The translations under genes were made by a program, and so were the position numbers. Below are positions 2,029-62,192 of a stretch of 64,000 nucleotides of DNA, piece by piece. The DNA comes from Octopus vulgaris. Taxonomy: Eukaryota. Each line of letters begins with the position of its first letter. Position 1 is the stretch's first letter. The stretch lies in NCBI GenBank assembly GCA_951406725.2, contig OX597834.1, positions 1,116,001 through 1,180,000 on the forward strand, written 5' to 3'. The notes beneath the pieces were generated by a model. The model did no database searches and was not told the DNA's origin. It saw only the letters and a program-made list of their open reading frames with translations.

Positions 2029-2947
2029 TAACCAATGCACAAACAAACGGGAAACAGACACTGAAGGTCTCCAAATCCTCATACATATAATCATGATCGT
2101 AAGTGTCGGGATTTCGATTCCTCGTGACGTGCTGCGTTCTTGAGCAAGCCATTATTTCACATTGCTCCACTCTACTAGGTTGGCAAGAATGAATAATACG
2201 AGTATTTCAAAGAGATTTTGGCAAAAAGGAGGGAGGTGCATTGGGCTTTTATCTATGTGTGTATGTATGTATTTATGTATGTATCTATCTATCTGTCTAT
2301 CTATCTTCATATATACATCAATACATATATCTATATACTCCTACATACATATATCCATATGCAAACACTCAAATGTTTGCGTGCGTGTTTATGTCTCTCT
2401 CTCCATCCTCTCTCTCTCCATCCATCCCCTCTTTCTCTCCATCATGTCTCTCCGTCTCTCTCCCTCTCTCCCCCTTCTCTCTCTGCCTGTATCTGTAATC
2501 TTTCATCTTAATGCTTCTCTTAAATACGAAATATCCATCCGAATTTGTATATTCTTTGATTTCCCTCAAGTCCACAGATCGATATGTGTTTTTCCTATCG
2601 ATATTCCAGTTAAAGTGCGTCATGTACCTCTGCACTTTCATAATCTCCCAATTCCACAGTATGCTTCCTTTCCAAACATGCCCACGCCACTGACCAAACA
2701 CGACGACCAGGTTCTTCTCTATCATTGATTCGCCTAATATTTGTTAGATCGATAATGTTCTATTTACTTCCACTATGTGTATTTAACAGAGCAATCTACA
2801 GAAAAAAATCAATCACTTCTTCTCTGCTACTCATAATCGATATAAAGCAACCAAAAAAATCCCAAACATATAAATTCTTGGAATGTTTTTTCTTCTCGTC
2901 GTTATTATTGATGATCAATTAATTAAAAAAATATTATTAGTATTGTG

Positions 2948-3003
<56 letters not shown>

Positions 3004-3281
3004 ATATTCAGTTACGGTTGAAATGTTAGGTCGTATGTCGGATCCGATTTCTTGTCATACAGGGGCAACTGTCTTTTATATTCCCCTATTCAAAGCCATC
3101 GCAAGTTTCTTTCTCTCCCTCTCTCGCACTTGACAGAAACTGGGGATGTACCAGTAATTCCTTCGTTTACCTTCCGCCCACACACTGGGTCACGTTGACT
3201 CAATAAGAATCCTTCTTTCTTTAAAGGGATTCATGGAGTATTAAGAAAAACACATGCTAATTCATATTCCGGTGGTCCAGA

Positions 3282-3387
<106 letters not shown>

Positions 3388-3454
3388 ATACATATATAAA
3401 TGTGCATGTATGCATGTACTTTTACATATATGCACTTACACATATCTATATATC

Positions 3455-3505
<51 letters not shown>

Positions 3506-3558
3506 TGTATATATATGTATATATATATATATGTATATATATGTATATATATATATGT

Positions 3559-3844
3559 GGAGGCGCAATGGCCCAGTGGTTAGGGCAGCGGACTCGCGGT
3601 CATAGGATCGCGGTTTCGATTCCCAGACCGGGCGTTGTGAGTGCTTATTGAGCGAAAACACCTAAAAGCTCCACGAGGCTCCGGCAGGGGGTGGTCCCAC
3701 AACTTTCTCTCACTCTTTCTTCTGTTGGCCTGCTCGCTTAGCCAGCGGGGTGGCGTCATTCGAAGGCTAAAACAATGCGAACGCATTGTGACCAGCGATG
3801 TGTAGCAACATCTGATGGTCTGGTCGGTCACATGATCACGTGAT
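3559..3844 (+). mobile_element. tRNA-derived SINE
   Basis: A box TGGCCCAGTGG and B box GGTTTCGATTCC, GC-rich body, TGATCACG-type tail, embedded in (TA)n. Confidence 0.85.
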
Positions 3845-3849
3845 ATATG

Positions 3850-3884
<35 letters not shown>

Positions 3885-4218
3885 GTATGTATACGCATGC
3901 TTGTATGTAAGTATTTATAAATCTTTACAAGGACTTACTTACCTTGTTAAGTTGAAAGTGCACTCTTGAGTTGAGGCGGAGGTAATGATTGTGTGGAAGA
4001 CGGCGATAGTCGTGGAGACAGGGATGATGCGATGGAAATGGTGATCAATGAATGGGAAAACCCCATCTTCACTCCACCGATCATCCAAGTATTTTGATAC
4101 GGAAAAAGTGGACCGTTCCTTAAACCTTTCTGCTGTCTCTATTTCCAGAGATTCGCCATTTATATTTACACACACATACACAAACGCACACACACACGAC
4201 TGCGCATATATATATATA

Positions 4219-4283
<65 letters not shown>

Positions 4284-4373
4284 TGTTTAGATGCAGCTGT
4301 ATAAACACTGATGTAGACACTTATATGTAGATATGACTACATATACATCTGTATAAATACATCAGTATATGTA

Positions 4374-4419
<46 letters not shown>

Positions 4420-4498
4420 CATACTGGCCACAAACATATATATGCAAGCATACACCTATACATGCATATGTGGATAAAGACATTAATAAATATACATA

Positions 4499-4534
<36 letters not shown>

Positions 4535-4881
4535 TGTATGTATGTATGTATGTATGTATGTATGTATGTATGTATGTGTATATATATATGTATGTTTGTA
4601 TGTATTTGTATGTATGTATGTCTACACACATATACATATCGATCTGCCGGTTCTTTGGCTCCGATTGCCCATAATATGTACAGCAGTAATGGTGTTAGTT
4701 TGGCACGTAAACAGGATAGAATCAGTGGAGCGAAACGAGTCGCTGTTTATCGCTCACCATCGGCAAAACAATTCCAATAAAGACCTATTTTCGAGGAACT
4801 GATCAAAGACACAGAAGATAATAAAATTATGGCATCGGTATACTTTTTTACACATACACGGACATACACACACACACATAT

Positions 4882-4932
<51 letters not shown>

Positions 4933-4940
4933 AGTTCACT

Positions 4941-4992
<52 letters not shown>

Positions 4993-6464
4993 CTATATAT
5001 ATTCACACATCTAAAAACATATGCATATATATAAATATATGTGTATGTATAAATATATATGCATATACATATGTATATGTATATATATTGTACATATATA
5101 TGTATATATGTATGTATATATATATATATGTCTATATATATGTATATATATACATATGTGTATATATATATATATATACACATATATATAAACATAGATG
5201 TATATATATGGATATACATATGTATATACACACATATACATATATATACAGACGCACATACATATGTATATTCATATATGTATGGGTATATATATATATA
5301 TATGTTTGTGTGTGTAAGTATGTGTGCGTAGAATCTAAAGATAATAAGAGCTGCTCATTTTAGTTTTTTGAATTTCTCTTTCACTTTCCTCACACGTCCA
5401 TATATGCATACAGAGACACGCATATACACACACACATACACGTATATAGACACGCATTCATATATATATATATATATACATATATATAAACATATACATA
5501 TACATATAGAGATACAGATAACGTAACGTACACGTACTTATATACACAGGCACACGTCCATATTTACATACATCGACAAACGTAGACATTTACTCACACA
5601 GACGCATACCCACTCCTCTTTATTACGAAAAGCAGCTAAGTGTGTTAGCGGAATTGGTAAACATGTAAGATGCTTAGAACAGATGAAGGTGATATTTCCA
5701 ATTCTTGGATCAATTTTGGAATCAGATTACGAAAGAAAGTTCTCTTGTTAAAGAGTTAAATAGAAATCGACGAACGCACGGTTTGGCAGAAAATTGGCAG
5801 CAGGGTGGAAATCGGGTAGTACAGGCGTTTTATTATTGTTTTACTTTCTTCTTTCTGTCAATAGACTACGGCCATGCTGGAGTAGTACTTTTAAGGCTTA
5901 CAACCAAGCTAGTGCTTATTTGAATTTCCGATGGTTATTTTATTGATCTGCCTCCTGAGAAATCGCTGTTTGGCACAACACCAGTTTTGCACTGGTAGGC
6001 ATAAACATAAAGACAGATACACACAGACACATACGAATTTGTAGACGTATATGTGTGTGAGCGTGTGTATGAGAGTGTGGGTGGGTGTTCATACACATAT
6101 ATACATTAGACCTGCTCTGTGAACAGGCATTGTAAACACAATATCGTTTCTATTTCTTTTTCTCTTATGCTTCTTATTACTTTTCCTTCAATTTGAAACT
6201 TTAAATTTATTTTTATTTCTTTTATCATTGGAGGTATTTTCCATCTACACGTTTTCCCCATTGTTGCTGTTACGTTTTGTATTTCTGCCTTTTAACGTGT
6301 TTTGATCGCCTCTTTTAGTGTAATATGTTTAATTTATCCTTGCCTCATATTATTGTTTATTTCTGTGATTTTATATACGTATAAACTTTGGTCAGCTTTG
6401 AGAAAATCGACTGTGATGCGCAGATTGATCATAGGGATAGTATGTACGTATATCTCTCTATATA

Positions 6465-15535: not shown

Positions 15536-15622
15536 ATATATATATATAATTAGACAAAATGAGATAACAAAGCCAAGGCTATGAGTTTGCAGGATATTTA
15601 TAAAGAAAAAGATATAGATATG

Positions 15623-15670
15623 ATCTTACAGCTGTTTCTGGAATATTATGGATATCCCTTCATCAGAGAT
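15623..15670 (-). ncRNA. Type I hammerhead ribozyme, intact
   Basis: Minus: atct CTGATGA agggatatccataatattcca GAAA cagctg TA agat. Stem I atct/agat, stem II ggatat/atattc, palindromic stem III, GUA cleavage triplet. Lies in a ~280-bp segment (15548-15830) between (TA)n and (CA)n. Confidence 0.85.
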
Positions 15671-15831
15671 GTTGTGAGATACTTATTTAGAGGTAAATAT
15701 TTGATTTCGAAATAAGGAATTATTATGGAAAAGGCTGAAATAAGGAATATAGAAGGAAATATGAGAATGAAAGTAGAAATAGAATATAAAATATATAAAG
15801 ATATTGTAGTTGCAGTTCCATTATATACACA

Positions 15832-29577: not shown

Positions 29578-30307
29578 ATTAAGACTAAATTAACAGTAAG
29601 TCCAGACACAAACCACCGGCAGTTTGCGAAGTAGATCCTCTCAGAGTAACAGCTCAACTCCATGGAGAGGCTGAATGTATTAAAACATTCCCGGAGGAAG
29701 AAATGCAGTAATTTATAAATGTAAAATCCGTAAAGGGTTCGCTCTAAACTTCGGCATTAAGAAATATGGCGATCTTTGAAATGGTCGCCACAGCAAACCC
29801 CCCCCCCCCAGTCCCATCCTCTCATCAAATATGAGGACCCCATACTGCAGCAGTTTAGGATTCACTGATCCACTGCTTATCAATCTCGCCAAAGACGTTG
29901 AAATATCTGAATGGTACAGAGACAAGGATTACCTGGATATTCCCTTACCTGCTTATTAGAAATTCTTTAGACATAGAATCAAGTAACCTAGGAGATATTT
30001 TACATGTTTTTCCTACATAGAAAATTTTGTAAATCTTATTAGCAAATGAAACACGTGTAATGGGAAATAGACACTACCAAAAAAATGTCCATCTCCAGTT
30101 TTTATATGTAATTACTCTGCAAAAGATATTTTTTCAAATGTTTTTCCACACCTCGCCCAAATATAACATCTACGTAGAAGTTTGGAGAACAGGACGAAGC
30201 AGATGCCCTCCACGAGGACATTTTCCTCCAATTCTGGCTGAAACGTATTTAAGTAACTAAGTATGTAAAATATATATATATATATGTTTGTGTGTGTGTG
30301 TGTGTAT

Positions 30308-30355
<48 letters not shown>

Positions 30356-30696
30356 GGTGTGTGTGTGTGAATGATCTTATTCCGGGACTCTTAGGACATC
30401 GCCACAGATATTTCTCCGGACCACATCAACTGGACTTCAGAATATCTCACCGCCTCCTTCAAGACTTCCTAATTCGAAACAAAAGTCGAATTAAGCAAGA
30501 AATTATTTTACATTTGTATACCGTACTTAAAACTTATTAATTATCAGTAATTAACTCATTATCATAACAGGACTGTAATTAAGACTAATTCATAATAAAC
30601 TGTAATTTGTTCAAGAGAGATAGCTTATATAAATATATTTGTTAAACTTGGATAAATGATAGAGTTGATTTCTTTTCACACACAATCACGTGCATT

Positions 30697-30853
<157 letters not shown>

Positions 30854-31050
30854 TATGTGTGTATACATATATATTTGTGCACATATACATAAGCAAAATA
30901 GCTAATTGTAAAATCACAAGAGATCAGAGTAGTAATTATACTAAAAACTAAAGCCTGTCTGCACATCAAAGTAACCAGACGGTGGAAGATCTGCCTGGGG
31001 TTAAACTAGTCGTAACATGGAACAATCACTTTCATGTGGCGAACTGACAT

Positions 31051-31107
<57 letters not shown>

Positions 31108-32031
31108 TATATACATATATATATATATAAAACTGGACGTCTTCCTGTCCCAGATTAACCTATTTCGCGGCAATAGTTGCGAATGAGTGTAGCGACATCA
31201 AACTCACTGTTTCACCAAATGTCAGACATAAAGTATAATAAAATAAAGTAATATAAAATGAAAGGGATTCAAAGAGGATATAAAGACGATGCCAGGGGTT
31301 AGGGCAGGAAGTCAAGTAATAAGTGTTTGTGTCCGTTTTGTGGCTAAGGTGAGTGGCTATAGAAATATTTCTATCTAGGGGGGTATGAGTCACATAAAGG
31401 GTGAATGTGTAAGTGAGCGTGAATGGAAAAAAAACGAGTTAAATGTTAAATTATAGGGAATAAAGTTTACAACTAAGGATTAGGGCAAGGTTGACCTCGA
31501 CGGAATTTGAACTCCACCCGTCGCTACGAAACATCGCTAAGCATCTTGCCCGGCGTGCTAACGATTCTGCCAGCTAGCCGCTTTATGTTCGTCTGTCGTT
31601 GTCGACAATGGCCATGGCATCATTTGGCAGAAGAAAATGGGTCGCTGTTCGACTGGGTGTTGCCGATGTGTTCGCGGAAGATTCTGCCACAGATCGGACG
31701 GTGGGGGTCTGCTGGGAATGAAGGCAACAAGTTACCTCTGGACTTGTGCAGCCCACGTTTTCTTTTTGCGATCGTATTCTGTTCGTAGGAGGAAGCACCA
31801 CTTTTGGTCTAGCTTTGCTAGGGAACGCGACACTGTGCTTGCGTCTCCTAGCTGTTGGGGGTGGATTTGGAAGTCCTTTAGTGAGGCTTTGAGTGTATCT
31901 TTGAAGCACTTTTCCAGCTTATCTTGTGTTCACCTGCCTTCTGCAAATTCACTGCAAAAAGGATTCCTTTGAGTATTCGTGTGTCAGGCATTCGAAGAAG
32001 GAGAATAAATTGAAAATGCACTCAGTTTCGA

Positions 32032-32072
<41 letters not shown>

Positions 32073-32359
32073 ATAAAATGAGTTTTATTGTTTGGCATCG
32101 AATTCTCAGTATACTTACCTCTGTATATGAGAATAAATATATAAATTTATGTTTCCACATGGCCCAACGTTTACATAAACTCACCTTGGGAAAACATACT
32201 CTCATATTTTTACAGTAAAAGTTATATATGAAAGCATTTGTTACATGAAAATATAATTTTGGATGTTTATTTTCAAATATTGATACGGAAACATGATAGA
32301 AATATTTCCCTCCTATGTGAGAAAAGCAGATCTAGTTTTATTGAAATATATATATTTAT

Positions 32360-32465
32360 GGTAATAATATATTGGATGGCATTTACAAACATTTAATGCA
32401 TTGCTACGCGCGTTTCCACAAATCACGATGCATTAAATGTTTATAAATCCCACCAAAGGATTACC
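32360..32465 (-). mobile_element. Miniature PLE end: half hammerhead inside a short inverted repeat
   Basis: Arms 32372-32401 / 32428-32456; the loop reads GAAACGCGCGTAGC on minus; same family as 16150-16205. Confidence 0.6.
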
Positions 32466-33116
32466 GTTATTCTTACTATATTATTCCTACATTATATCGG
32501 TACCAATCGATGCAACCCCCAAAACTACTTCCCCAGTCATCATCGTTAGACTGTGGCCGGCATAATGGAATAGTAGCTTTATTTGCACATTCAAAACGTT
32601 TCCCGTTTACAAATTGAAAATATAGATATAAGATGGTTGTGTACTCCTTAAACAGAGTCTGAGCACCTCTGGTGCTTACATCTTAGATCTATCATGGCGT
32701 CTGATCTGGCTTTTAAACCAGACAATGTTTTGAAAAGACACTTGCAGAAATTGATATCTGCTTTGGACCACCAAGAGTTCCAGTTGAGCTCTGATCTTAG
32801 TGGATCTTAAAATGTCTTTTGAGGCTTCTGTTAGATTTGCAGACCTTATGGCATCCACACGGCATAGACAGGTGTGCAAGGCTAGATAGGCAGAGTAGGT
32901 GATGGAGGTTGGTTTCTCATAGGTCCGCAAATGAGATTTGAGCAGCTCAGCAAAAGAAAGGCATGGTCTGTCACAAATGTATGTATGTATGTATGTATGT
33001 ATGCATGTATGTATGTATGTATATATATATATATATAAAATATATATACGTATATATATATATACATATATAAATATATATATATGTATATATGTATATA
33101 CTTGTTTATATATATG

Positions 33117-33149
<33 letters not shown>

Positions 33150-33150
<1 letters not shown>

Positions 33151-33703
33151 CAATAAAGGGTGGAATATAATTAATTTAATAAAATTAATCAATTTCACCT
33201 AGTAGATTTGTCGGTATGGAAAAGACCATATTTGGTAAAGGTAATAATAATTATAATAAAGGGTTAAAAGCAACAAGTTGCTCAAAACCACATACCGAAA
33301 ATATTAGAAATAGCAGCCAAAATTGGTCAGTATTTCATCTACTAGTAAAAAGTCTCCACAAACAAACAGAATTTGTAAGCTGTATATGGCAAAGAAAGGC
33401 AGAAAATAACGAAAACCCAGCCTCTGGATTAATTATAGACGACTCGTTTCTGGATTAGAACCGAAGGTTCATTTCCTTGTCAATATAATATTTCCTATAA
33501 ATCTAGAAATGCTAGGGGAAAAACAGAGGCTGGGTTTTCGTTATTTTCTGCCTTTTCTTTGCCATATACAGCTTACAAATTCTGTTTGTTTGTGGAGACT
33601 TTTTACTAGTAGAGGAAATACTGACCAATTTTGGCTGCTATTTCTAATATTTTCGGTATGTGGTTTTGAGCAACTTGTTGCTTTTAACCCTTTATTATAA
33701 TTA
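33150..33703 (-). mobile_element. (TA)n-inserted element with ~180-bp inverted repeat and decayed hammerhead in the spacer
   Basis: Arms 33248-33426 / 33524-33703 nearly identical; spacer on minus: attata TTGACAA gga..gaaccttcggttc..tcca GAAA cgagtc GTC tataat (33432-33489); both flanks (TA)n. Confidence 0.7.
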
Positions 33704-33740
33704 TATATATATATATATATATACATGTATATTTGTGTGT

Positions 33741-33799
<59 letters not shown>

Positions 33800-33976
33800 A
33801 ATAAATATTAGGGAATAAATCCAAATTTACAGGGAAAAAATCAGATTTAGGATTAAATCCAATTTTATAGTAAAATATTATATAATATTAATTCGAGACA
33901 AAACCACTATTAGGCAAATCAAACAAGGAAAGACTTAATCAATACATAAACATTTTTAATATAAAGAAATAAACCG

Positions 33977-34019
33977 CCACTACAATCGTTTCATGTCTTC
34001 AATGACATTCGTCAGGTGG
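33977..34019 (-). ncRNA. Minimal type I hammerhead ribozyme, intact
   Basis: Minus: ccac CTGACGA atgtc-attgaa-gacat GAAA cgattg TA gtgg. Perfect stems I and II; lies in a ~265-bp segment (33797-34060) flanked by TA-rich tracts. Confidence 0.88.
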
Positions 34020-35341
34020 ATTTTCGATCTCCTAATCTGTTTTAATTTATGAAATGAATATATAATATATATATATAATGTGTGTTTGTGTGTGTGTGTG
34101 CGCGCGCATGAACACACGTACATATATAAATAAAGACCGTTTTCTATTATCTTTTATATTTTTCAACCAATTCGACTGCGACTATGCTGGGGCACGGCCC
34201 TTAAGGATTTAGTCGATAAAGTCGACCCCAGCGCTTGCTTTTCTGCCTGATACGTATTCTATCGTCTGTTTTTGCTGAACTGCCAGGTTACAGAGACGTA
34301 AATAAACCAACTCTGGTTGTGAAGCACACACACACACACACACACGACAGGTTCTGACCCCGCTTAGTCTCGACTTTCTCTGAAAAAATATTTTTTGAGT
34401 TTTTCCACCATATTCCATCGATTAGTTGTGCTTCCCTCCTGTGAGATACCTATAGGTTATATCCTTTACTCCACGTTACGTACCGTAGTTATGCTTTCTA
34501 CTTTATTCACATCACATATCCGACAGTGAATGTTCTGCCATTGTTATATGCCTTCGTCACGTCTCTCATCGGCTCTATCGTTCAATTATGTCTTCCTTCC
34601 ATGTGATATCCATTAATTCTGTTTTTTTTATCCCCTGTTATATACGTTAGGCGTGTCTTTGCTATATGATATCATTTAATACTTTCGCTATCAGATATTC
34701 TCAATAAATATCGAGTTAGAGTTATTTAATATCCAGAACTTTGATGACAATAAATACGATCTTTTAGTCGATCGTCGATTCGAGAATTATTCACTGCGGA
34801 TTATTAATTTACAAGCAATACACACACACACACACACGTGTATATACGTATGTGTGTGTTATATAATTTTATATAAATTACATATATGTTTGTGAGTATA
34901 AGTATTCACGCTCACAGACGCATATGTATATATATATTGAGATACGCTTACAAACCATGCGCTTTTTTTGTACTGAAAGTATAAAAGTATATTTTATTAA
35001 CAAGAATCTTTGAAATAGATTTTATAGAATTTTTTAATGAAAATAATATTGTCAAAGAAATAATGAGAAAAAATGTAGGAAGTCTCTTTGCTTCTGAGAT
35101 TAAATTAAGAAGATTTTGCGAAGATTCAATCGGTGAGATGCGAAAACAATGGCTTTGTTAATATTTATTGTAGAAACGTCAGCATACTGGAGCTGATTGT
35201 TAAGAAAGATGTCAGATATATTTTATTATTTCACGTCTGTAACAAATATCACCATTATATTTGAAATCTTGCAACAAGAATAACAACAAGAAGATTGAAG
35301 AATCTGGTTGTGAGAATGGAAAGAATATTGAAAGATTGAAA

Positions 35342-53719: not shown

Positions 53720-54115
53720 GTGTGAATGCGTGTATGTGTGTTTGTTCCCCCACCACTGTTTGACAACCGGTGTCGGTGTGAACGGAAATTAGCGGTTCGA
53801 CAAAAGACGCCGATAGAATAAGTACCGAGCTTTAAAGATATAAATACTGAGGTCGATTCATTCGACTACAAATTCTTCAAGGTGCTGCTGTGGCATGGCC
53901 TCAGTCTAATGACTGAAACGGGAAAGATTAAAGATAATAACTGCTGCTATGTGGTAAGACGCTTGCTTCTCGACCACATGGTTCCGAGTTCAGTCCAACT
54001 CTGTGGCACCTTGGGCAAGTATCTTCTATTATAGCCACGGGTCGACATAAGCCTTCTAAGTCGATTCGGTAGACAGAAACGGAAAGAAGCTCGTCCTAAA
54101 CATACATACATACGT

Positions 54116-54174
<59 letters not shown>

Positions 54175-54445
54175 TACATACATACATACATACATACATA
54201 CATACATACATGTATCAATGTGTGAGCGTCATTATGCTTTTGTTTGTCCCCGCCTCACCGCTTGACAACCGGTGTGGGTGTATTTACGTCCCCGTAGCTT
54301 AGAGCTTCGACAAAAGAGGTCAATAGAATAAGCACCAGACTTTAAATAAAAGTAAGTCCTGGGATCGACTTGTTCGACTAAGACCCCTAAAAAGCGGTGC
54401 CCCAGCATGGCCGCAGTCAAATGAATGACACAAATAAAAATAATA
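53720..54445 (+). mobile_element. SINE 3' half followed by a full SINE copy (dominant family)
   Basis: Tail at 53740-53935, then head-to-tail copy 53945-54445 with internal (CA)n/(CATA)n. Confidence 0.8.
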
Positions 54446-54874: not shown

Positions 54875-55779
54875 CCGGTTGGTCTGGACTGTTGTGAGAA
54901 GATGTGATTTTCGGCTCCGTAAACAGAAAAAAAGAACAAAAAGAATAATTGTCAATTATGGCTCGCTATGGCGAGCAAAATACTGGTTCTCATCACCGTA
55001 ACGGTGAGTTGAGAATTTTTTCTTGAAATTCTTTTTGTAAATTCTAGTGGGCGTATCTCACCAGAAAAATAAGAATAAGCCATTTGGATTACCTTTTTGG
55101 ATTACCATTTTTGGAGTATTATACAAAGGATTCCTTGTCTGTGTTATTTGTGAGGTTTTTCTATTACTTTTCCCTTCTTTTATTTTTTCTTTCTTTCTAA
55201 ATTTTGGTTCATTCTTTTCATTACTTTAATTTCAGTTTCCTCCCCTCCTCTTTTATTTTGTTTTATTTTTATTCGGTTAAATTTTTTGGCGGATTGTCTT
55301 TTGAACTACTTTTGAACTGTTTTTTGACATGGCAGAGAAGGAACTTAAAAAGAAAAACTCTGTCTTAGAGTGGGTTAAAAGATATGGAGGAGAAGACTGT
55401 GGTACTTAGAACTTATTCTAAAGTTCTTAATTCCATCACCGTCTTTCCAAAACAAGTCATAAAAAATGAACTTAAAGAATATTTGTCCTCTTTAAAATAT
55501 ATATCTCGTGGTGTCAAACATGCAACTATATGGTTGCTGTTTGACGACGGGGAAAAAGCTCGCCAGTTTGCGAGTCAGCCTTTAGAAGGCAAGGAAATTC
55601 TGTTCCTTCCGTCATATTGTGGAAGAAAATTAATACGAGCCTGGGTATGTGGGTTATCCCAGGCACCGAAGCGGATTGGATTGAAAATACCATCCGACGG
55701 GACTGGGAGATGGCGGGCTCAGGATCTTAAATGTAAGGGTATTGCCGGCGGTCGATTGGGATGGGACAATACTTCGTGA
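54875..55779 (+). mobile_element. 5' UTR and truncated ORF1 of an L1/Tx1-like LINE
   Basis: T-rich leader, ATG at 55329 (MAEKELKKKN) frameshifting into the non-repetitive ORF 55384..55779 (KTVVLRTYS...LKYISRGVKHATIWLLFDDGEKARQF...LFLPSYCGRK), RRM-like pattern; interrupts a SINE head at 54840-54875. Confidence 0.55.
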
Positions 55780-56065
55780 ATGCTATTTGATCGACAGTAA
55801 CTTTGCGGAAACACGGTGGACATATGAGCATGCAAGCATACATACATACATACATACATACATACATACATACATACATACATACATACATACATACACA
55901 CATACTATACATAAACACTAATAAATGCAAGTAGAATAACGTATTTTCGGATATTCTAAAATTGTTGACACAACAGAAACAATTGTTTCTCTTAGAAGAA
56001 GAATTCTACAATTAAAGAAGTGATTTCGTCTATACGTAATTTTGTTTATATATACATATATATAC

Positions 56066-56142
<77 letters not shown>

Positions 56143-56257
56143 TATAAATTCGGGGTGAGTACTTGATAATTATAAGCACCTGTGTATACCGTTTGGTGGT
56201 GTAGGTGGTGGAGTAAATTGATCAAAATAAAAATAAAAACATGAGGCGAAGGATTCA

Positions 56258-56335
56258 GCGGTACATATGTTTCGGGCCTTTATTAGACAGATTTATAACA
56301 AAGCATAATGTATGTCTGTGGCCTTCTTCAGCCGC
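56258..56335 (-). ncRNA. Type I hammerhead ribozyme in the 3' pseudo-LTR
   Basis: gcgg CTGAAGA aggccacagac...gtctaataaaggccc GAAA catatg TA ccgc; stem I gcgg/ccgc, 51-nt stem II region, palindromic stem III, GUA triplet. Confidence 0.88.
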
Positions 56336-57924
56336 GCACAACAGCTTCCACAAGGACATGTGTTACATCAAAAATTCTTGGTTGGGAATGCAAATCCTCT
56401 CGTTCACGTACGACATAATGCGGCAGCAGCATAGAATTGAAGCGTCCATCTCTTTCTTCTCTCAATGTAGAATAGAGGAAACTTGGATGTTGAGGTAATG
56501 TAAATAAATAAGTACGTATATAGAGGTGAAGATGGAGGGGCGAGAGTTCGGGACGAGGGATAAAAAATATATATAAGAAATGTACGTATAGAATAATATA
56601 AAAATGTAGAGGATAAAGATATAAAGAGTTGTAAGGAGATGTAAAGGGGGTATAAAGAAATATAAAGAAATATAAATAAATGTAAAGGCATAAGGTTGTA
56701 AAGTAAAAATAGAAATGGAAATAATAGTAAAAGAAGTAAAAGAACCTGATAAAAACATGATAAAAGTGTAAAAGAATGTAAAGATAAGGGATGTATAGAG
56801 GTCGCGGACCAAGCATGGTGGTCAGGAGATTGATAAAACTTAGTTGTAGAACTGTCAGTAAATTAACAGTTTCGTCGTAAATCAGAGCTGATGAGAATTT
56901 AATCTGGTTCCTTGAATTAAATGGACTTCCAGTACATACATATCATCATGGGTACATACACCCACATACACGCGTACATATACGTCTCCAAGCCTATAAG
57001 CATACACACGCACTCGCGTGTAAACACGTACATAAACACACACGCACCCACACGCACGCGCGCACACACACATACATACAACAGAATATCCGCATATATA
57101 GACGGACATTACGCGCGTACACGCTCACATGTATATACGCGCGCCCCTCACTACATACACACACGTATATGCCCACGCCTCTAGGTCTAGGTATAAGATA
57201 TTAAAGGATGTGTATAAGAACGTATGTAAAGAATCCCGTACTCATGTTAATACGCGCACGCACACACGGCTGTGTGTCCGTATGTGCGTGCACATATACA
57301 CTCACATACACACACAGAGACACACGCGCACATGGGTATAGCATATGTATGTATGCGCATACACACGTACGCGGACGCTCGCATACTCAAAAGGCGGATC
57401 CATAGGTAAGTAAATAAACATATATAGAGGTGTAAAGCGATAAATTAGGGGTAAGAATGAGGGTAAGGGTAAAGATTAGAAATAAAAAATACAGTATAAA
57501 ATAAGAAATACAATGTAATAGTTAGAAATGAAATATAAGAATTATAAGGGTTATAAGAGTTAAGGTAAGGGATGAAAATGAAAATGAGAGTAAATGGAAG
57601 TAGAATAAAAGTAAAAATAAAATTAAAAATAAAAATAAATGGAAGTAGGATAAAAGTAAAAATAAAAATAAAAATAAAAATAAAATAAAATAAAATAAAA
57701 AAATAAGGTAAAAATATAATTTTGTAAAGTTTAACATGAGATGGAGGTGGCACACATATATATATATATATGTATATGTACACATACGTACACGTATGTG
57801 CACATACACACGCACACACACACACACACACACATACACACGCACATATAGGAAAGCGGGATGTGCTGGAGCCGACAGGTTGCACCGGGTGGGAGGAAAT
57901 AGCATGGGGGAGTTGGTATAAGAC

Positions 57925-58791
57925 CTAAGCATTGTAGTATTTGAAAGTATTAATAAGTTTATGTATACAGGATGGTTTGAACTCTGACCTTTTGTTAATA
58001 AGATTGTGTTTGTCTTTGAATTTCAAGATGTTCAGGAGTTCTACACAGCATAATTGGCATCCTGCTCTATTATTTAAATAAGGTGCAGCTGATCCGATGA
58101 TGGACCATCTGAGTTTGAAGCCTATGCATTTGTCTTTTAATTCCCAAATTCTTTTAGAGAGGGAGGTGCTGTTAGCCTTATGTCTATGTCTCAGCGAGGA
58201 CCGGTGGTTGTAGTATCTGGATTTCCAGGAGGTTGAGCAACCAATATAGGTGAGTGTGTTAAACTGAGTACTCACCTCACATGAGTATATTACGTTTTTC
58301 GCCCTGCATGCGCCCTGCAGCGGGCACTCTGATGCACATCTGCAGTTGCATTGCATTGCATTATTCGGGCGGAGGTGTTGCAATACGAGTGGGGGCGTTG
58401 GTATCCTCCTGGTTGTTGATGGGTGTAGTATTTCCTCTGTTGTGTTGGCGGGTGTTATTACTAACTGCTTGGGTAGTATGGCTGCCAGTCTGGTTATGTT
58501 GCCTACTGTCTAGATGAGGGGGTTCTGTTGGTCGCTATGGTTTGCTCTTGATCTAGCTGTTCTAATATTAATATAGTTATGTTTAGCTAAGAGGCAGCTC
58601 ATGTTGGGCAGGGTAGAGTAGGAAATCCTAATAGTTTTGTTGGAGAAGATACTTCTATATTTGTGGGTGGGTGGGAAGTTGTTGGAAATTATAGAGAATA
58701 TTCTCTTACATAACTTACCTCTAACTGCTAAGTTGAAAGGTATGTTGAACCATATATATTTGCGTAATCTACTATTATCCCTTCTATTTCT
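57925..58791 (-). pseudogene. PLE RT thumb + Cys-rich linker + GIY-YIG endonuclease (5'-truncated, one in-frame TAG at 58510-58512)
   Basis: YIWFNIPFN...FPPTHKYRSIFSNKTIRISYSTLPNM (thumb); CNCRCASECPLQGAC; VIY...YIG...R..NH...LSKRIW...CQLC..E...N. ORFs 58510..58854 and 57925..58383 are in the same frame with no other stop between them. Confidence 0.92.
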
Positions 58792-59646
58792 CCTAGACCT
58801 AGAGGCGTGGGCATATACGTGTGTGTATGTAGTGAGGGGCGCGCGTATATACATGTGAGCGTGTACGCGCGTAATGTCCGTCTATATATGCGGATATTCT
58901 GTTGTATGTATGTGTGTGTGCGCGCGTGCGTGTGGGTGCGTGTGTGTTTATGTACGTGTTTACACGCGAGTGCGTGTGTATGCTTATAGGCTTGGAGACG
59001 TATATGTACGCGTGTATGTGGGTGTATGTACCCATGATGATATGTATGTACTGGAAGTCCATTTAATTCAAGGAACCAGATTAAATTCTCATCAGCTCTG
59101 ATTTACGACGAAACTGTTAATTTACTGACAGTTCTACAACTAAGTTTTATCAATCTCCTGACCACCATGCTTGGTCCGCGACCTCTATACATCCCTTATC
59201 TTTACATTCTTTTACACTTTTATCATGTTTTTATCAGGTTCTTTTACTTCTTTTACTATTATTTCCATTTCTATTTTTACTTTACAACCTTATGCCTTTA
59301 CATTTATTTATATTTCTTTATATTTCTTTATACCCCCTTTACATCTCCTTACAACTCTTTATATCTTTATCCTCTACATTTTTATATTATTCTATACGTA
59401 CATTTTTTATATATATTTTTTATCCCTCGTCCCGAACTCTCGCCCCTCCATCTTCACCTCTATATACGTATTTATTTATTTACATTACCTCAACATCCAA
59501 GTTTCCTCATTCTACATTGAGAGAAGAAAGAGATGGACGCTTCAATTCTATGCTGCTGCCGCATTATGTCGTACGTGAACGAGAGGATTTGCATTCCCAA
59601 CCAAGAATTTTTGATGTAACACATGTCCTTGTGGAAGCTGTTGTGC

Positions 59647-59724
59647 GCGGCTGAAGAAGGCCACAGACATACATTATGCTTTGTTATAAATCTGTCTAAT
59701 AAAGGCCCGAAACATATGTACCGC
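59647..59724 (+). ncRNA. Type I hammerhead ribozyme in the inverted 5' pseudo-LTR
   Basis: Exact reverse complement of 56258-56335. Confidence 0.88.
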
Positions 59725-59763
59725 TGAATCCTTCGCCTCATGTTTTTATTTTTATTTTGATCA

Positions 59764-59824
<61 letters not shown>

Positions 59825-61764: not shown

Positions 61765-62192
61765 AGGCGCAGGAGTGGCTGTGTGGTAAGTAGCTTGCTA
61801 ATCAACCACATGGTGCCGGGTTCAGTTCCACTGCGTGGTACCTTGGGCAAGTGTCTTCTGCTAAAGCCTCGGGCCGACCAAAGCCTTGTGAGTGGATTTG
61901 GTAGACGGAAACTTAAAGAAGCCTGTCGTATATATGTATATATATATATATATATGTATGTGTGTTTGTTTGTGTGTCTGTGTTTGTCCCCCTTAGCATT
62001 GCTTGACAACCGATGCTGGTGTGTTTACGTCCCCGTCACTTAGCGGTTCGGCAAAAAGAGACCGATAGTATAAGTACTGGGCTTACAAAAAAAGAATAAG
62101 TCCCGGGGTCGAGTTGCTCGACTAAAGGCGGTGCTCCAGCATGGCCGCAGTCAAATGACTGAAACAAGTAAAAGAGTAAAGAGTAAAGAGTA
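61765..62192 (+). mobile_element. Full-length young tRNA-derived SINE (dominant family)
   Basis: GGCGCAGGAGTGGCTGTGTGGTAAG head, GGTTCAGTTCC B box, CORE-like ccttgggcaagtgtctt, internal (TA)/(TG) tract, (AAAGAGT)n tail. Confidence 0.92.

Follow-up and report, generated by a model that had tools for sequence, protein, structure and literature searches.

The element at 56146-59768 of the window, the whole 64,000-nucleotide stretch of Octopus vulgaris DNA analyzed here, is a 5′-truncated, frameshifted copy of a young 4.4-kb Hydra-clade PLE family inserted in (TA)n, with both arms probably made in one event of two nicks and two-site priming. The locus itself is ordinary, because the clade has already been reported in octopus and the copy is dead. 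Its family is a useful data set on PLE inverted repeats and one-sided tails, whose formation is called undefined in the consulted parts of PMC8557442.

Structure and lesions of the inserted copy

The 3′ end of the main copy abuts a (TA)n target microsatellite (56047-56145). Next to it lies a 68-bp tail (56146-56213, minus strand), which is the start of the family 5′ UTR read after the pseudo-LTR end. It is followed by the main (3′) pseudo-LTR arm of 978 bp (56214-57191, minus strand). The tail is present on this arm only and aligns to the sibling copy L033 from about position 2731. The inverted, 5′-truncated arm of 977 bp (58792-59768, plus strand), read as the second cDNA, stops at the pseudo-LTR end without a tail and borders a second (TA)n microsatellite (59769-59824). 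It meets the truncated main copy in a 4-bp microhomology (58792-58795), and the 5′ truncation points of the two arms differ, at unit positions 3442 and 1779. The first-pass annotation had described (TA)n on both sides and inverted arms of about 977 bp with about three differences, and both descriptions hold: the arms differ by two substitutions and one indel and are 99.7% alike. All three differences sit in the main arm and are private among the copies examined. A private extra base at 56473-56474 (minus strand; 1 of 127 sequences) sits right on the main arm's putative transcription start. The 3′ UTR (56214-57924, minus strand) is about 1.75 kb long in intact siblings and carries a private 40-bp deletion at about 57343 in the window copy. 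From stop codon to element end we measured 1,779 bp (57924-56146), matching the 3′ region of roughly 1.8 kb reported earlier. The 68-bp 5′ UTR tail and the 40-bp deletion had been overlooked in that reading.

The inverted structure might also be an assembly artefact. No contig of four public runs spans the element, although these contigs are too short to be a test, and the sibling locus L109 shows fold-back duplications in this assembly. We regard an artefact as very improbable, since the arms have different ends, different flanks and three differences, and 48 loci share this design, a trait already published for PLEs. The suggestion of a recent insertion stands in relative terms only: the arms show 3 differences over 977 sites, and over 622 nt one of them departs from the sibling copy L038 by a single difference, but several other inverted copies have 0-1 arm differences. 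An empty paralogous site was sought on C21, where the duplication spans only 29879-35341 of the window.

Each arm contains a predicted type I hammerhead, in agreement with the earlier description of hammerhead pseudo-LTRs. The hammerhead of the main arm (56258-56335, minus strand) is in sense orientation, with its predicted cut after GUA at 56262, and has a long 41-nt insert in stem II. That of the inverted arm (59647-59724, plus strand) has its predicted cut after 59720. The core and stems I-III of this ribozyme, predicted from sequence, lie near the 3′ end, and the core is nearly invariant among sampled copies. Rfam gave 0 matches in the window at the gathering threshold. The hammerhead fold was the MFE structure for the bare 78 nt only and was not with 9 nt of flank (z 0.19). 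A stretch antisense to the element (56888-56926, plus strand) contains CUGAUGA and a 7-8-bp hairpin and is missing GAAA and stem I; it may be the vestige of a decayed hammerhead. Another stretch, CUGAUUUA...CGAAAC at 59088-59140, is not a hammerhead in any sampled subfamily, and no outside source of it was found in all fetched loci.

The coding part is a 5′-truncated ORF remnant (57925-58795, minus strand) comprising the post-RT spacer, the thumb-associated WFNIP block, the linker and the endonuclease, with RT absent. By tblastn, it covers only residues 552-836 of the 836-aa family protein. The GIY-YIG endonuclease (EN; 57928-58299, minus strand) has VIY...YIG, the conserved R, E and N, CxxC and CxH, without CCHH. 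The previously noted CxCx5C linker motif CNCRCASEC was located at 58350-58324 (minus strand). Compared with intact siblings, an out-of-frame segment (58369-58523, minus strand) lies between two deletions, one of 1 bp in a C run at about 58523 and one of 20 bp at about 58369. The net loss of 21 bp restores the frame, so the apparent TAG (58512-58510) and about 50 codons are out-of-frame text. The "one frame with a single TAG" of the first-pass annotation is thus an accident of two deletions. Were the copy an autonomous driver, almost intact but for one premature stop, this would account for the thumb block, linker and EN being readable in a single frame and for arms 99.7% alike. We give this reading almost no weight: RT is missing from the window, the frame is accidental, and the 20-bp and 40-bp deletions occur in none of the other 54 loci tested. 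Being 5′-truncated, without RT and frameshifted, the window copy cannot be autonomous, and this claim is refuted for the present assembly. A complete open RT-EN frame is absent at the locus; intact ORFs of the family occur only at other loci.

A new family, probably of the Hydra clade

The family unit measures about 4.42 kb. Its single RT-EN ORF, 836 aa long, has low-complexity sequence inserted at two places around the WFNxP block. Among 54 ORF-picked loci, 10 keep the start-codon context, and the 836-aa ORF is open at 5 of these siblings. L033 is an exact monomer of the unit and shows the domain order, with a C-terminal EN, no N-terminal EN and no CxC-type Naiad architecture, while L038, L042, L105 and L117 are longer than one unit and reach upstream of the initiator-like site. 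The siblings have the make-up of EN+ PLEs: one ORF combines a PLE-type RT with a GIY-YIG endonuclease, and the pseudo-LTRs are direct or inverted with an optional tail. Exact 28-mer counts in the genome gave 1,547 hammerhead ends, 92 EN matches and 63 RT matches, making the hammerhead about 17-25 times commoner than the ORF. In public sequencing runs, the family was found in 20 of 24 rows under three organism labels, with no RNA holder listed.

Pfam returned no RT or GIY-YIG match (nothing for the remnant and only a sub-cutoff desmoplakin for the full ORF), and a PDB sequence search gave 0 matches. The EN model (pLDDT 89) best matched the structure of I-TevI (Z 9.2, rmsd 2.4 Å over 90 residues), with further matches to EndoII (Z 7.3) and UvrC (Z 6.5). 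Foldseek found nothing at E ≤ 0.001, and GIY-YIG proteins ranked top.

Motifs, (TA)n targeting and a partial tree lacking named references support placement in the Hydra clade, as had been proposed from the linker, the C-terminal EN and the TA preference. The ORF carries LYRDD and ADKT (DKT in place of DKG, with GxKF/Y absent), and CCHH is absent from the EN. Among the best 120 homologs, DK[TS] was found in 117 and DKG and GxKF/Y in 0. Residues C2, C4 and C10, C99, C102 and E105, N120, and C129 and H131 are invariant in 41 sequences; these linker and EN residues were matched by eye to the Fig. S7 text of PMC8557442. The N-terminal motif reads RIRWAA, not the RWK present in sister families B and C. 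In a quick tree of 70 RTs, without a named Hydra, Poseidon, Nematis or Naiad row, the family fell within a set of DKT/CxCx5C proteins that was separate from the 22 Neptune-type RTs (SH-aLRT 100), and it formed a group with two Argonauta proteins and sister family B (SH-aLRT 100). Identity to L179, a Neptune-type element of the same genome, was only 26% over 318 aa. DKG, a Cx2-5CxxC linker and CCHH in the EN, which mark Neptune and Nematis, were not found. Penelope/Poseidon elements have DKG and CCHH and no linker Zn-finger, whereas the family has the linker, DKT and no CCHH.

With the Hydra clade as described in the consulted parts of Craig et al. (2021, PMC8557442), the family has in common the single RT-EN ORF, DKT without GxKF, LYRDD, the WFNxP block, the CxCx5C linker, a CCHH-free EN with CxxC and CxH around E and N, a canonical type I hammerhead near the 3′ end, and (TA)n targets. 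Its inverted 5′-truncated arm resembles Penelope-13_HM, with a tail at one end there too. The 4.42-kb unit exceeds the 1.1-3.0 kb of the Hydra consensi listed there, shortness (<3 kb) being a tendency and not diagnostic. Other differences are the 836-aa length, the two low-complexity inserts, the 1.75-kb 3′ UTR, RWAA for RWK, the 41-nt stem II insert against listed loops of 3-10 nt, and a tail of about 70-80 nt against 30-40. Hydra-1_Obim of Octopus bimaculoides was described in the same paper and differs from the family, as judged by eye. The family is new; its clade had been recorded from octopus before.

One tail per inverted insertion and proposed paired priming

Tabulated insertion flanks bore out the (TA)n targeting: 170 of 182 family termini lie in (TA)n, 5 in (TC)n, 1 in (TAGA)n and 6 elsewhere. 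The 3′ ends form two clusters, the tail end and the pseudo-LTR end. Of 49 inverted pairs, 48 carry the tail on one arm and one arm only (p about 1e-13 in a binomial test against 0.5), and in the exception, L109, at least 400 bp of flank are duplicated as well. Sister family B follows the same rule in 10 of 10 inverted insertions. No sampled hammerhead end stops at the ribozyme cut site, a result that is unbiased only in the 54 ORF-picked loci and the window, because the locus sets B and C were picked with cut-site-spanning sequence; pieces beginning at the cut site were outside the reach of the search. One tailed arm per pair and no end at the cut site together suggest paired two-site priming on uncut RNA. 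Arms of one insertion have a common subfamily state along with private variants; those of L047 show 1 difference between them against 13 to the nearest other copy. In 8 of 23 arm comparisons, including that of the window, one arm was nearer another locus than its partner, with 2 of the 8 coming from the compound locus L064.

What we observed is the structure and its lesions, the family, its targets and the end classes; the mechanism is read from genomic end patterns. In this reading, the TA repeat would be nicked on both strands by the endonuclease, and the two nicks would serve as primers for reverse transcription from two different internal sites of the same, likely uncut, RNA. At the window locus, synthesis of one cDNA would have begun at the tail end (about +116 nt beyond the ribozyme cut site) and extended for 2.65 kb. 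The other would have started at the pseudo-LTR end (about +48) and run 977 nt. The two would then have been joined head to head via the 4-bp microhomology, with the RT-EN protein supplied by an intact sibling. Copies that exceed one unit would imply either a template jump or a template in circular or tandem form. At TA-flanked ends, 2.0 nt can pair on average (n = 141), compared with 0.9 under a simple null, a pattern indistinguishable from that of a fixed nick phase. Tails fold no better than shuffles (z −0.23 and −0.12).

Published models explain such arms differently. Self-priming by fold-back on an antisense template was proposed in PMC3846280, and PMC8557442 words the tail as the product of endonuclease resolution of an intermediate. 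Fold-back would likewise be expected to give identical arms, resolution could leave a one-sided tail, and many short pairs are near-palindromic at the junction. Even so, this route is quite unlikely here: long copies join arms of very different 5′ ends through microhomology, a simple fold-back would not give unit positions 3442 and 1779, and the tail is on the long arm at some loci and on the short arm at others. In vitro, moreover, the tail equals the interval between two RT start sites (PMC11167929).

The template might instead be a circular monomer, cut by the ribozyme, re-ligated and copied by rolling-circle RT, with the two start sites just past the ligation point. This is possible but doubtful. 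The nearly invariant hammerhead core, the ends downstream of the cut site, the four over-unit copies and the exact monomer L033 are in keeping with a circle, which for long copies is compatible with two-site priming. A circle has no 5′ end, however, and so cannot alone explain the sharp pile-up of short-copy ends 212 nt upstream of the cut site. Ribozyme mutants of a Poseidon PLE also left insertion in vitro unaffected (PMC11167929).

Short hammerhead pieces and comparison with known systems

Most sampled ends are short pseudo-LTR pieces, and their 5′ ends pile up at TCATTC (59506-59511, plus strand), which we take to be initiator-like on the Inr consensus. Short family copies most often begin at its A (59509), a putative transcription start that precedes the cut site by about 212 nt. 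Within 23 nt around this A fell 14 of 64 5′ ends, counted by hand in a near-list-order sample, against 2 and 0 in neighboring 23-nt windows. Family B shows a fainter pile-up, with 4 of 30 ends falling within 5 nt, and its site is not a TCAKTY word. Incompatible site pairs showed no excess across the putative start (5% against 12% upstream), so strand transfer between molecules there was rejected as unsupported.

These patterns fit paired priming that includes the transcript end. The transcript would start at the initiator, and priming near its 5′ end would run off the RNA, giving many hammerhead pieces of 60-340 bp. Paired priming may even be obligate, with one RNP (probably a dimer) using one start site per strand and run-off of the 5′ pseudo-LTR at the cap site yielding short promoter-keeping hammerhead elements; we put this at slightly less than an even chance. 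If true, every two-armed insertion would have exactly one tail, and run-off would lead directly from coding PLEs to retrozyme-like parasites. The one-tail rule (48/49; 10/10 in the sister family) and the sharp 5′ boundary offer yes/no predictions for 5′ RACE and for the in vitro system of PMC11167929. Although one-sided tails are known in print, counts of the pairing rule or the run-off boundary did not turn up in a literature search of limited reach.

Alternatively, the short pieces could be an independent non-autonomous lineage, retrozyme- or SINE-like, copying itself from its own internal promoter. Their fixed 5′ boundary keeps the initiator-like word and, 27 nt downstream, a GGACG word that we take as a candidate motif. 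The 17- to 25-fold excess of hammerhead over ORF matches would fit as well, and non-autonomous PLE derivatives are described. Such a lineage is nonetheless unlikely, since the haplotypes of short copies match long-copy subfamilies, at least five in succession, and not a subfamily of their own, and a tail-less short copy could not template tailed progeny.

The element had been put forward as the best candidate for a driver of small hammerhead elements. For about 1,500 short pieces of the family's own pseudo-LTR across the genome this holds; for the small elements of the window it is not supported, as no DNA is shared between the family and the elements at 15.6 kb, 34 kb or 1.5-1.9 kb. The 15.6-kb element belongs to another, older Hydra-type family, of which it forms the 3′ end. 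Nor is the family of the 56146-59768 copy an obvious first choice for action in trans, because the genome holds at least two further Hydra families whose ORFs are open, including one present at about 60 loci.

Among known systems, consulted in part, a Poseidon PLE nicks and extends both strands in vitro and is a predicted dimer (PMC11167929). This element, PAc of Anolis carolinensis (Frangieh et al. 2024), is like the family in its two internal RT starts bounding the tail, in starting downstream of the hammerhead in an AC-rich stretch and in its AT-rich targets; extension of both strands and use of uncut RNA agree with our reading of the family. PAc belongs to another clade and shows no strand difference in start site, whereas the family ends differ in 48 of 49 pairs; it also works without primer homology, unlike the 2.0 nt against 0.9 at TA-flanked ends. 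The Adineta vaga Penelope (Arkhipova et al. 2013, PMC3846280) has inverted pLTRs with an optional tail on one arm, TATA/Inr-like pLTR motifs, 5′-junction microhomology and N-rich in-frame inserts near the thumb and before the EN, all as in the family. It differs in its low copy number, visible TSDs and pLTRs of about 200 bp, and in that study self-priming on antisense RNA was invoked for the inverted arms. Non-LTR retrozymes (Li, Clavereau and Pollet, bioRxiv 10.64898/2026.07.22.740005) are, like the family pieces, short, hammerhead-bearing and related to PLE pseudo-LTRs, and are likely moved by PLE enzymes. They form head-to-tail arrays. The short pieces of our sample instead lie in (TA)n as inverted pairs or dispersed monomers and, unlike those retrozymes, follow the subfamilies of their coding family.

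Structure, coding capacity and age of the window copy

The window copy (56146..59768), a Penelope-like element (PLE), has two arms, 56214-57191 (−) and 58792-59768 (+), that are reverse complements two substitutions and one indel apart, and (TA)n adjoins both outer ends. Its minus strand codes for a WFNIP block, a CNCRCASEC linker and a VIY...YIG domain. The first-pass annotation, which had described the linker, ~977-bp arms with about three differences and (TA)n on both sides, was borne out on these points. Pfam and Rfam searches of the copy returned no match. In both arms, a structure-aware scan located a type I hammerhead that has a full core, stems I and II of 4 bp each, a palindromic stem III and a 41-nt stem II insert. 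This shape is the MFE structure for the bare 78 nt; with 9 nt of flank added, the MFE structure differs. The C-terminal 142 residues gave an AlphaFold model of pLDDT 89 that aligned best with I-TevI (Z 9.2, rmsd 2.4 Å, 90 residues), followed by EndoII and UvrC; Foldseek alone reached no significant E-value with this model. Each arm also holds a decayed antisense hammerhead-like vestige, at 56888-56926 (+) and 59057-59095 (−), where older subfamilies keep a perfect 8-bp hairpin. Capture of an inverted pseudo-LTR piece may have produced this vestige and made the 3′ UTR longer.

Searching the species' own genome (2.8 Gb) yielded many family copies (90-97%). The start-codon context was kept in 10 of 54 ORF-match loci, five of which have an open 836-aa RT-EN frame. 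Compared with two open-frame siblings, the window copy lacks about the first 1,780 nt of the 4.42-kb unit, RT included, and is missing 1 bp of a C run (~58523), 20 bp at ~58369 and 40 bp of the 3′ UTR. Because the 1-bp and 20-bp deletions add to 21 bp, the copy had been read as one frame with a single TAG, an appearance that is thereby explained away. The shortened C run, seen in 6 of the 43 copies having that context, may reflect slippage or an error of assembly; no other of the 54 loci has the 20-bp or the 40-bp deletion. Truncated past the RT and bearing these deletions, the copy is almost certainly non-autonomous and loses the role of autonomous driver once proposed for it, the open frames of the family lying at other loci.

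The suggestion of a recent insertion holds in relative terms. The window copy falls in the youngest of the sampled subfamilies, and one arm differs from another locus (L038) at a single position in 622 nt. Yet it is not among the most pristine copies: its arms differ at 3/977, all three being private changes of the main arm, against 0-1 arm differences at several other inverted loci. Public contigs carry the family under three organism labels; these contigs cannot span the window locus. Elsewhere in the window, 29879-35341 has a 99% identical inverted duplicate at G000:C21 ~784.4-789.9 kb, and 55330-55800, by the left flank, holds a 136-aa open frame (no Pfam match) in another high-copy repeat. 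Two partially matching copies of one dispersed repeat, presumably resembling an octopus SINE, lie at 53870-54440 and 61765-62180.

Termini, arm pairing and putative priming

(TA)n targeting was confirmed by tabulating flanks: of 182 hammerhead-bearing termini at 131 non-overlapping loci, 170 lie in (TA)n, 5 in (TC)n, 1 in (TAGA)n and 6 in other sequence. Relative to the predicted cut site, the termini cluster at two downstream positions: ~+22 to +49 for the pseudo-LTR end and mostly +114 to +128 for the tail end. The tail corresponds to the beginning of the 5′ UTR. None of the 182 termini at 131 loci is a hammerhead 3′ half ending at the cut site; 76 loci had been chosen with sequence across that site, and the fair test is the remaining 55, among which a few ends (L051, L066, L106) are interrupted or halt inside the loop.

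Exactly one arm is tailed in 48 of 49 simple inverted pairs (tail left in 26, right in 22; two loci that are not simple pairs were excluded), and in 10 of 10 inverted pairs of the sister family B. Single insertions have the tail in 31 of 78 cases. At the sole exception, L109 (G000:C10:27035000-27044999), the flank is duplicated too; the mirroring takes in the element plus 400 bp or more of flank on both sides, a fold-back duplication or an assembly artefact. The partner arm was at least as close as any other locus in 15 of 23 arm comparisons, and subfamily and private variants are usually common to both arms of one insertion.

For a Poseidon PLE, PMC11167929 describes nicking and extension of both strands, with two internal starts bounding the tail, use of unprocessed RNA, and predicted dimerisation. 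For the present family, we lean slightly toward paired priming. Each strand's nick would prime at a different site on one RNA, and the two cDNAs would be joined via microhomology (4 bp at 58792-58795 in the window copy). Rival accounts of the paired arms are self-priming on antisense RNA, resolved by the endonuclease, and a circular template. One sibling locus (L033, 2723-7141) is an exact one-unit copy with both ends at the pseudo-LTR/5′ UTR junction and ~10 bp of terminal overlap; this single case would be the product expected from a full turn round such a circle.

Under paired priming, short elements would arise by priming at the 5′ pseudo-LTR and run-off at the cap site. A hammerhead 28-mer has 1,547 exact matches, compared with 92 for one from the linker and 63 for one from the RT, and the 60 loci fetched out of the first 100 listed hammerhead matches were mostly pseudo-LTR pieces of 60-600 bp, frequently inverted pairs. 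By hand count, 14 of 64 5′ ends (50 loci in list order, some already sampled or known-long loci skipped) fall within 23 nt near unit position 4159, with 2 and 0 in the neighboring intervals; an internal deletion accounts for one of the 14. In ten pairs chosen for short spacing, 11 of 20 ends fall there. The modal end is the A of TCATTC, which we take to be an initiator-like word, 212 nt upstream of the cut site (window 59509). Of 127 sequences, 126 keep TCATTC intact; the window main arm alone has an extra base at this point, perhaps, speculatively and from one case, a template-jump scar. The pile-up is weaker in family B (4 of 30 ends within 5 nt). Four copies reach upstream of the putative start, and therefore a template longer than the simple transcript is needed; recombination across this start was tested with a negative result. 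The short copies might, less probably, form an independent non-autonomous lineage; against this, haplotypes of at least five long-copy subfamilies are present among them. The end-pairing rule and the run-off boundary are the main value of this family, and both are directly testable.

Small hammerhead elements of the window

The family had also been put forward as the kind of driver behind the window's small hammerhead elements, a role that the elements at 15.6 kb, 34 kb and 1.5-1.9 kb do not bear out, sharing no DNA with it. The first (15550-15800, −) belongs to an older Hydra-type family (copies 85-89%), distinct from the window family, and forms its 3′ end. In L264 this element is continuous with a long 3′ UTR, ~1.3 kb of which links it to that family's decayed Hydra-type endonuclease. 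The second (33790-34075, −) is a ~260-bp non-coding element with 1,528 first-look candidates. Its best matches are mostly inverted pairs with ends at query 281-286 versus near 201 and 5′ ends at query 23-29, the same long-end/short-end inverted design as the window family with no common DNA. This design points to a PLE enzyme, but not that of the window family. The third (1450-1900) is an inverted pair of degenerate hammerhead-like motifs, with CUGAUGA at +1758 and −1615.

Placement among Penelope-like elements

PMC8557442 defines Hydra PLEs by DKT, RWK, no GxKF, a CxCx5C linker, no CCHH, CxxC plus CxH, canonical hammerheads and (TA)n targets; the family shows all of these except RWK, reading RWAA instead. 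By eye, its RT4-5 and thumb regions fit the Hydra rows of Fig. S7 in that paper, unlike the Penelope, Nematis and Neptune rows. Database searches with the family ORF gave 1,377 hits out of 7,989 scored (30-44% identity). In the best 120, DK[TS] occurred in 117, DKG in none and CxCx5C in 111, and DKG occurred in all 120 homologs of a same-genome Neptune-type ORF. A quick tree without named references, built from 70 RTs (five own-genome ORFs, 45 of the 120 Hydra-side matches and 20 of the 120 Neptune-side ones), set the family within DKT proteins and split it from Neptune-type RTs with SH-aLRT 100; its subclade also holds family B and two Argonauta proteins. The Hydra placement first suggested is upheld by the motifs, RWK apart, and in part by this tree, and membership in that clade is very probable.

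At least three Hydra families in the genome have open ORFs. Family B, at L099 (G000:C19:23214700-23224699), has a 957-aa ORF (+, 2677-5550) with long asparagine-rich inserts, a hammerhead whose stem II insert is long (953 exact 28-mer matches) and a tail of ~115-120 nt. Family C (L199-L228; 711-aa ORF) looks very young, with ~60 near-identical copies, mostly open, among the matches listed. The Neptune-type family (L179-L183; 765 aa from the first Met, DKG, CCHH, second ORF upstream) is young, with many copies open. The known Hydra clade gains a new, long family here, of which the window copy is a dead, truncated member. Hydra-1_Obim from Octopus bimaculoides is already listed in PMC8557442; compared by eye, it and the window family are different families.
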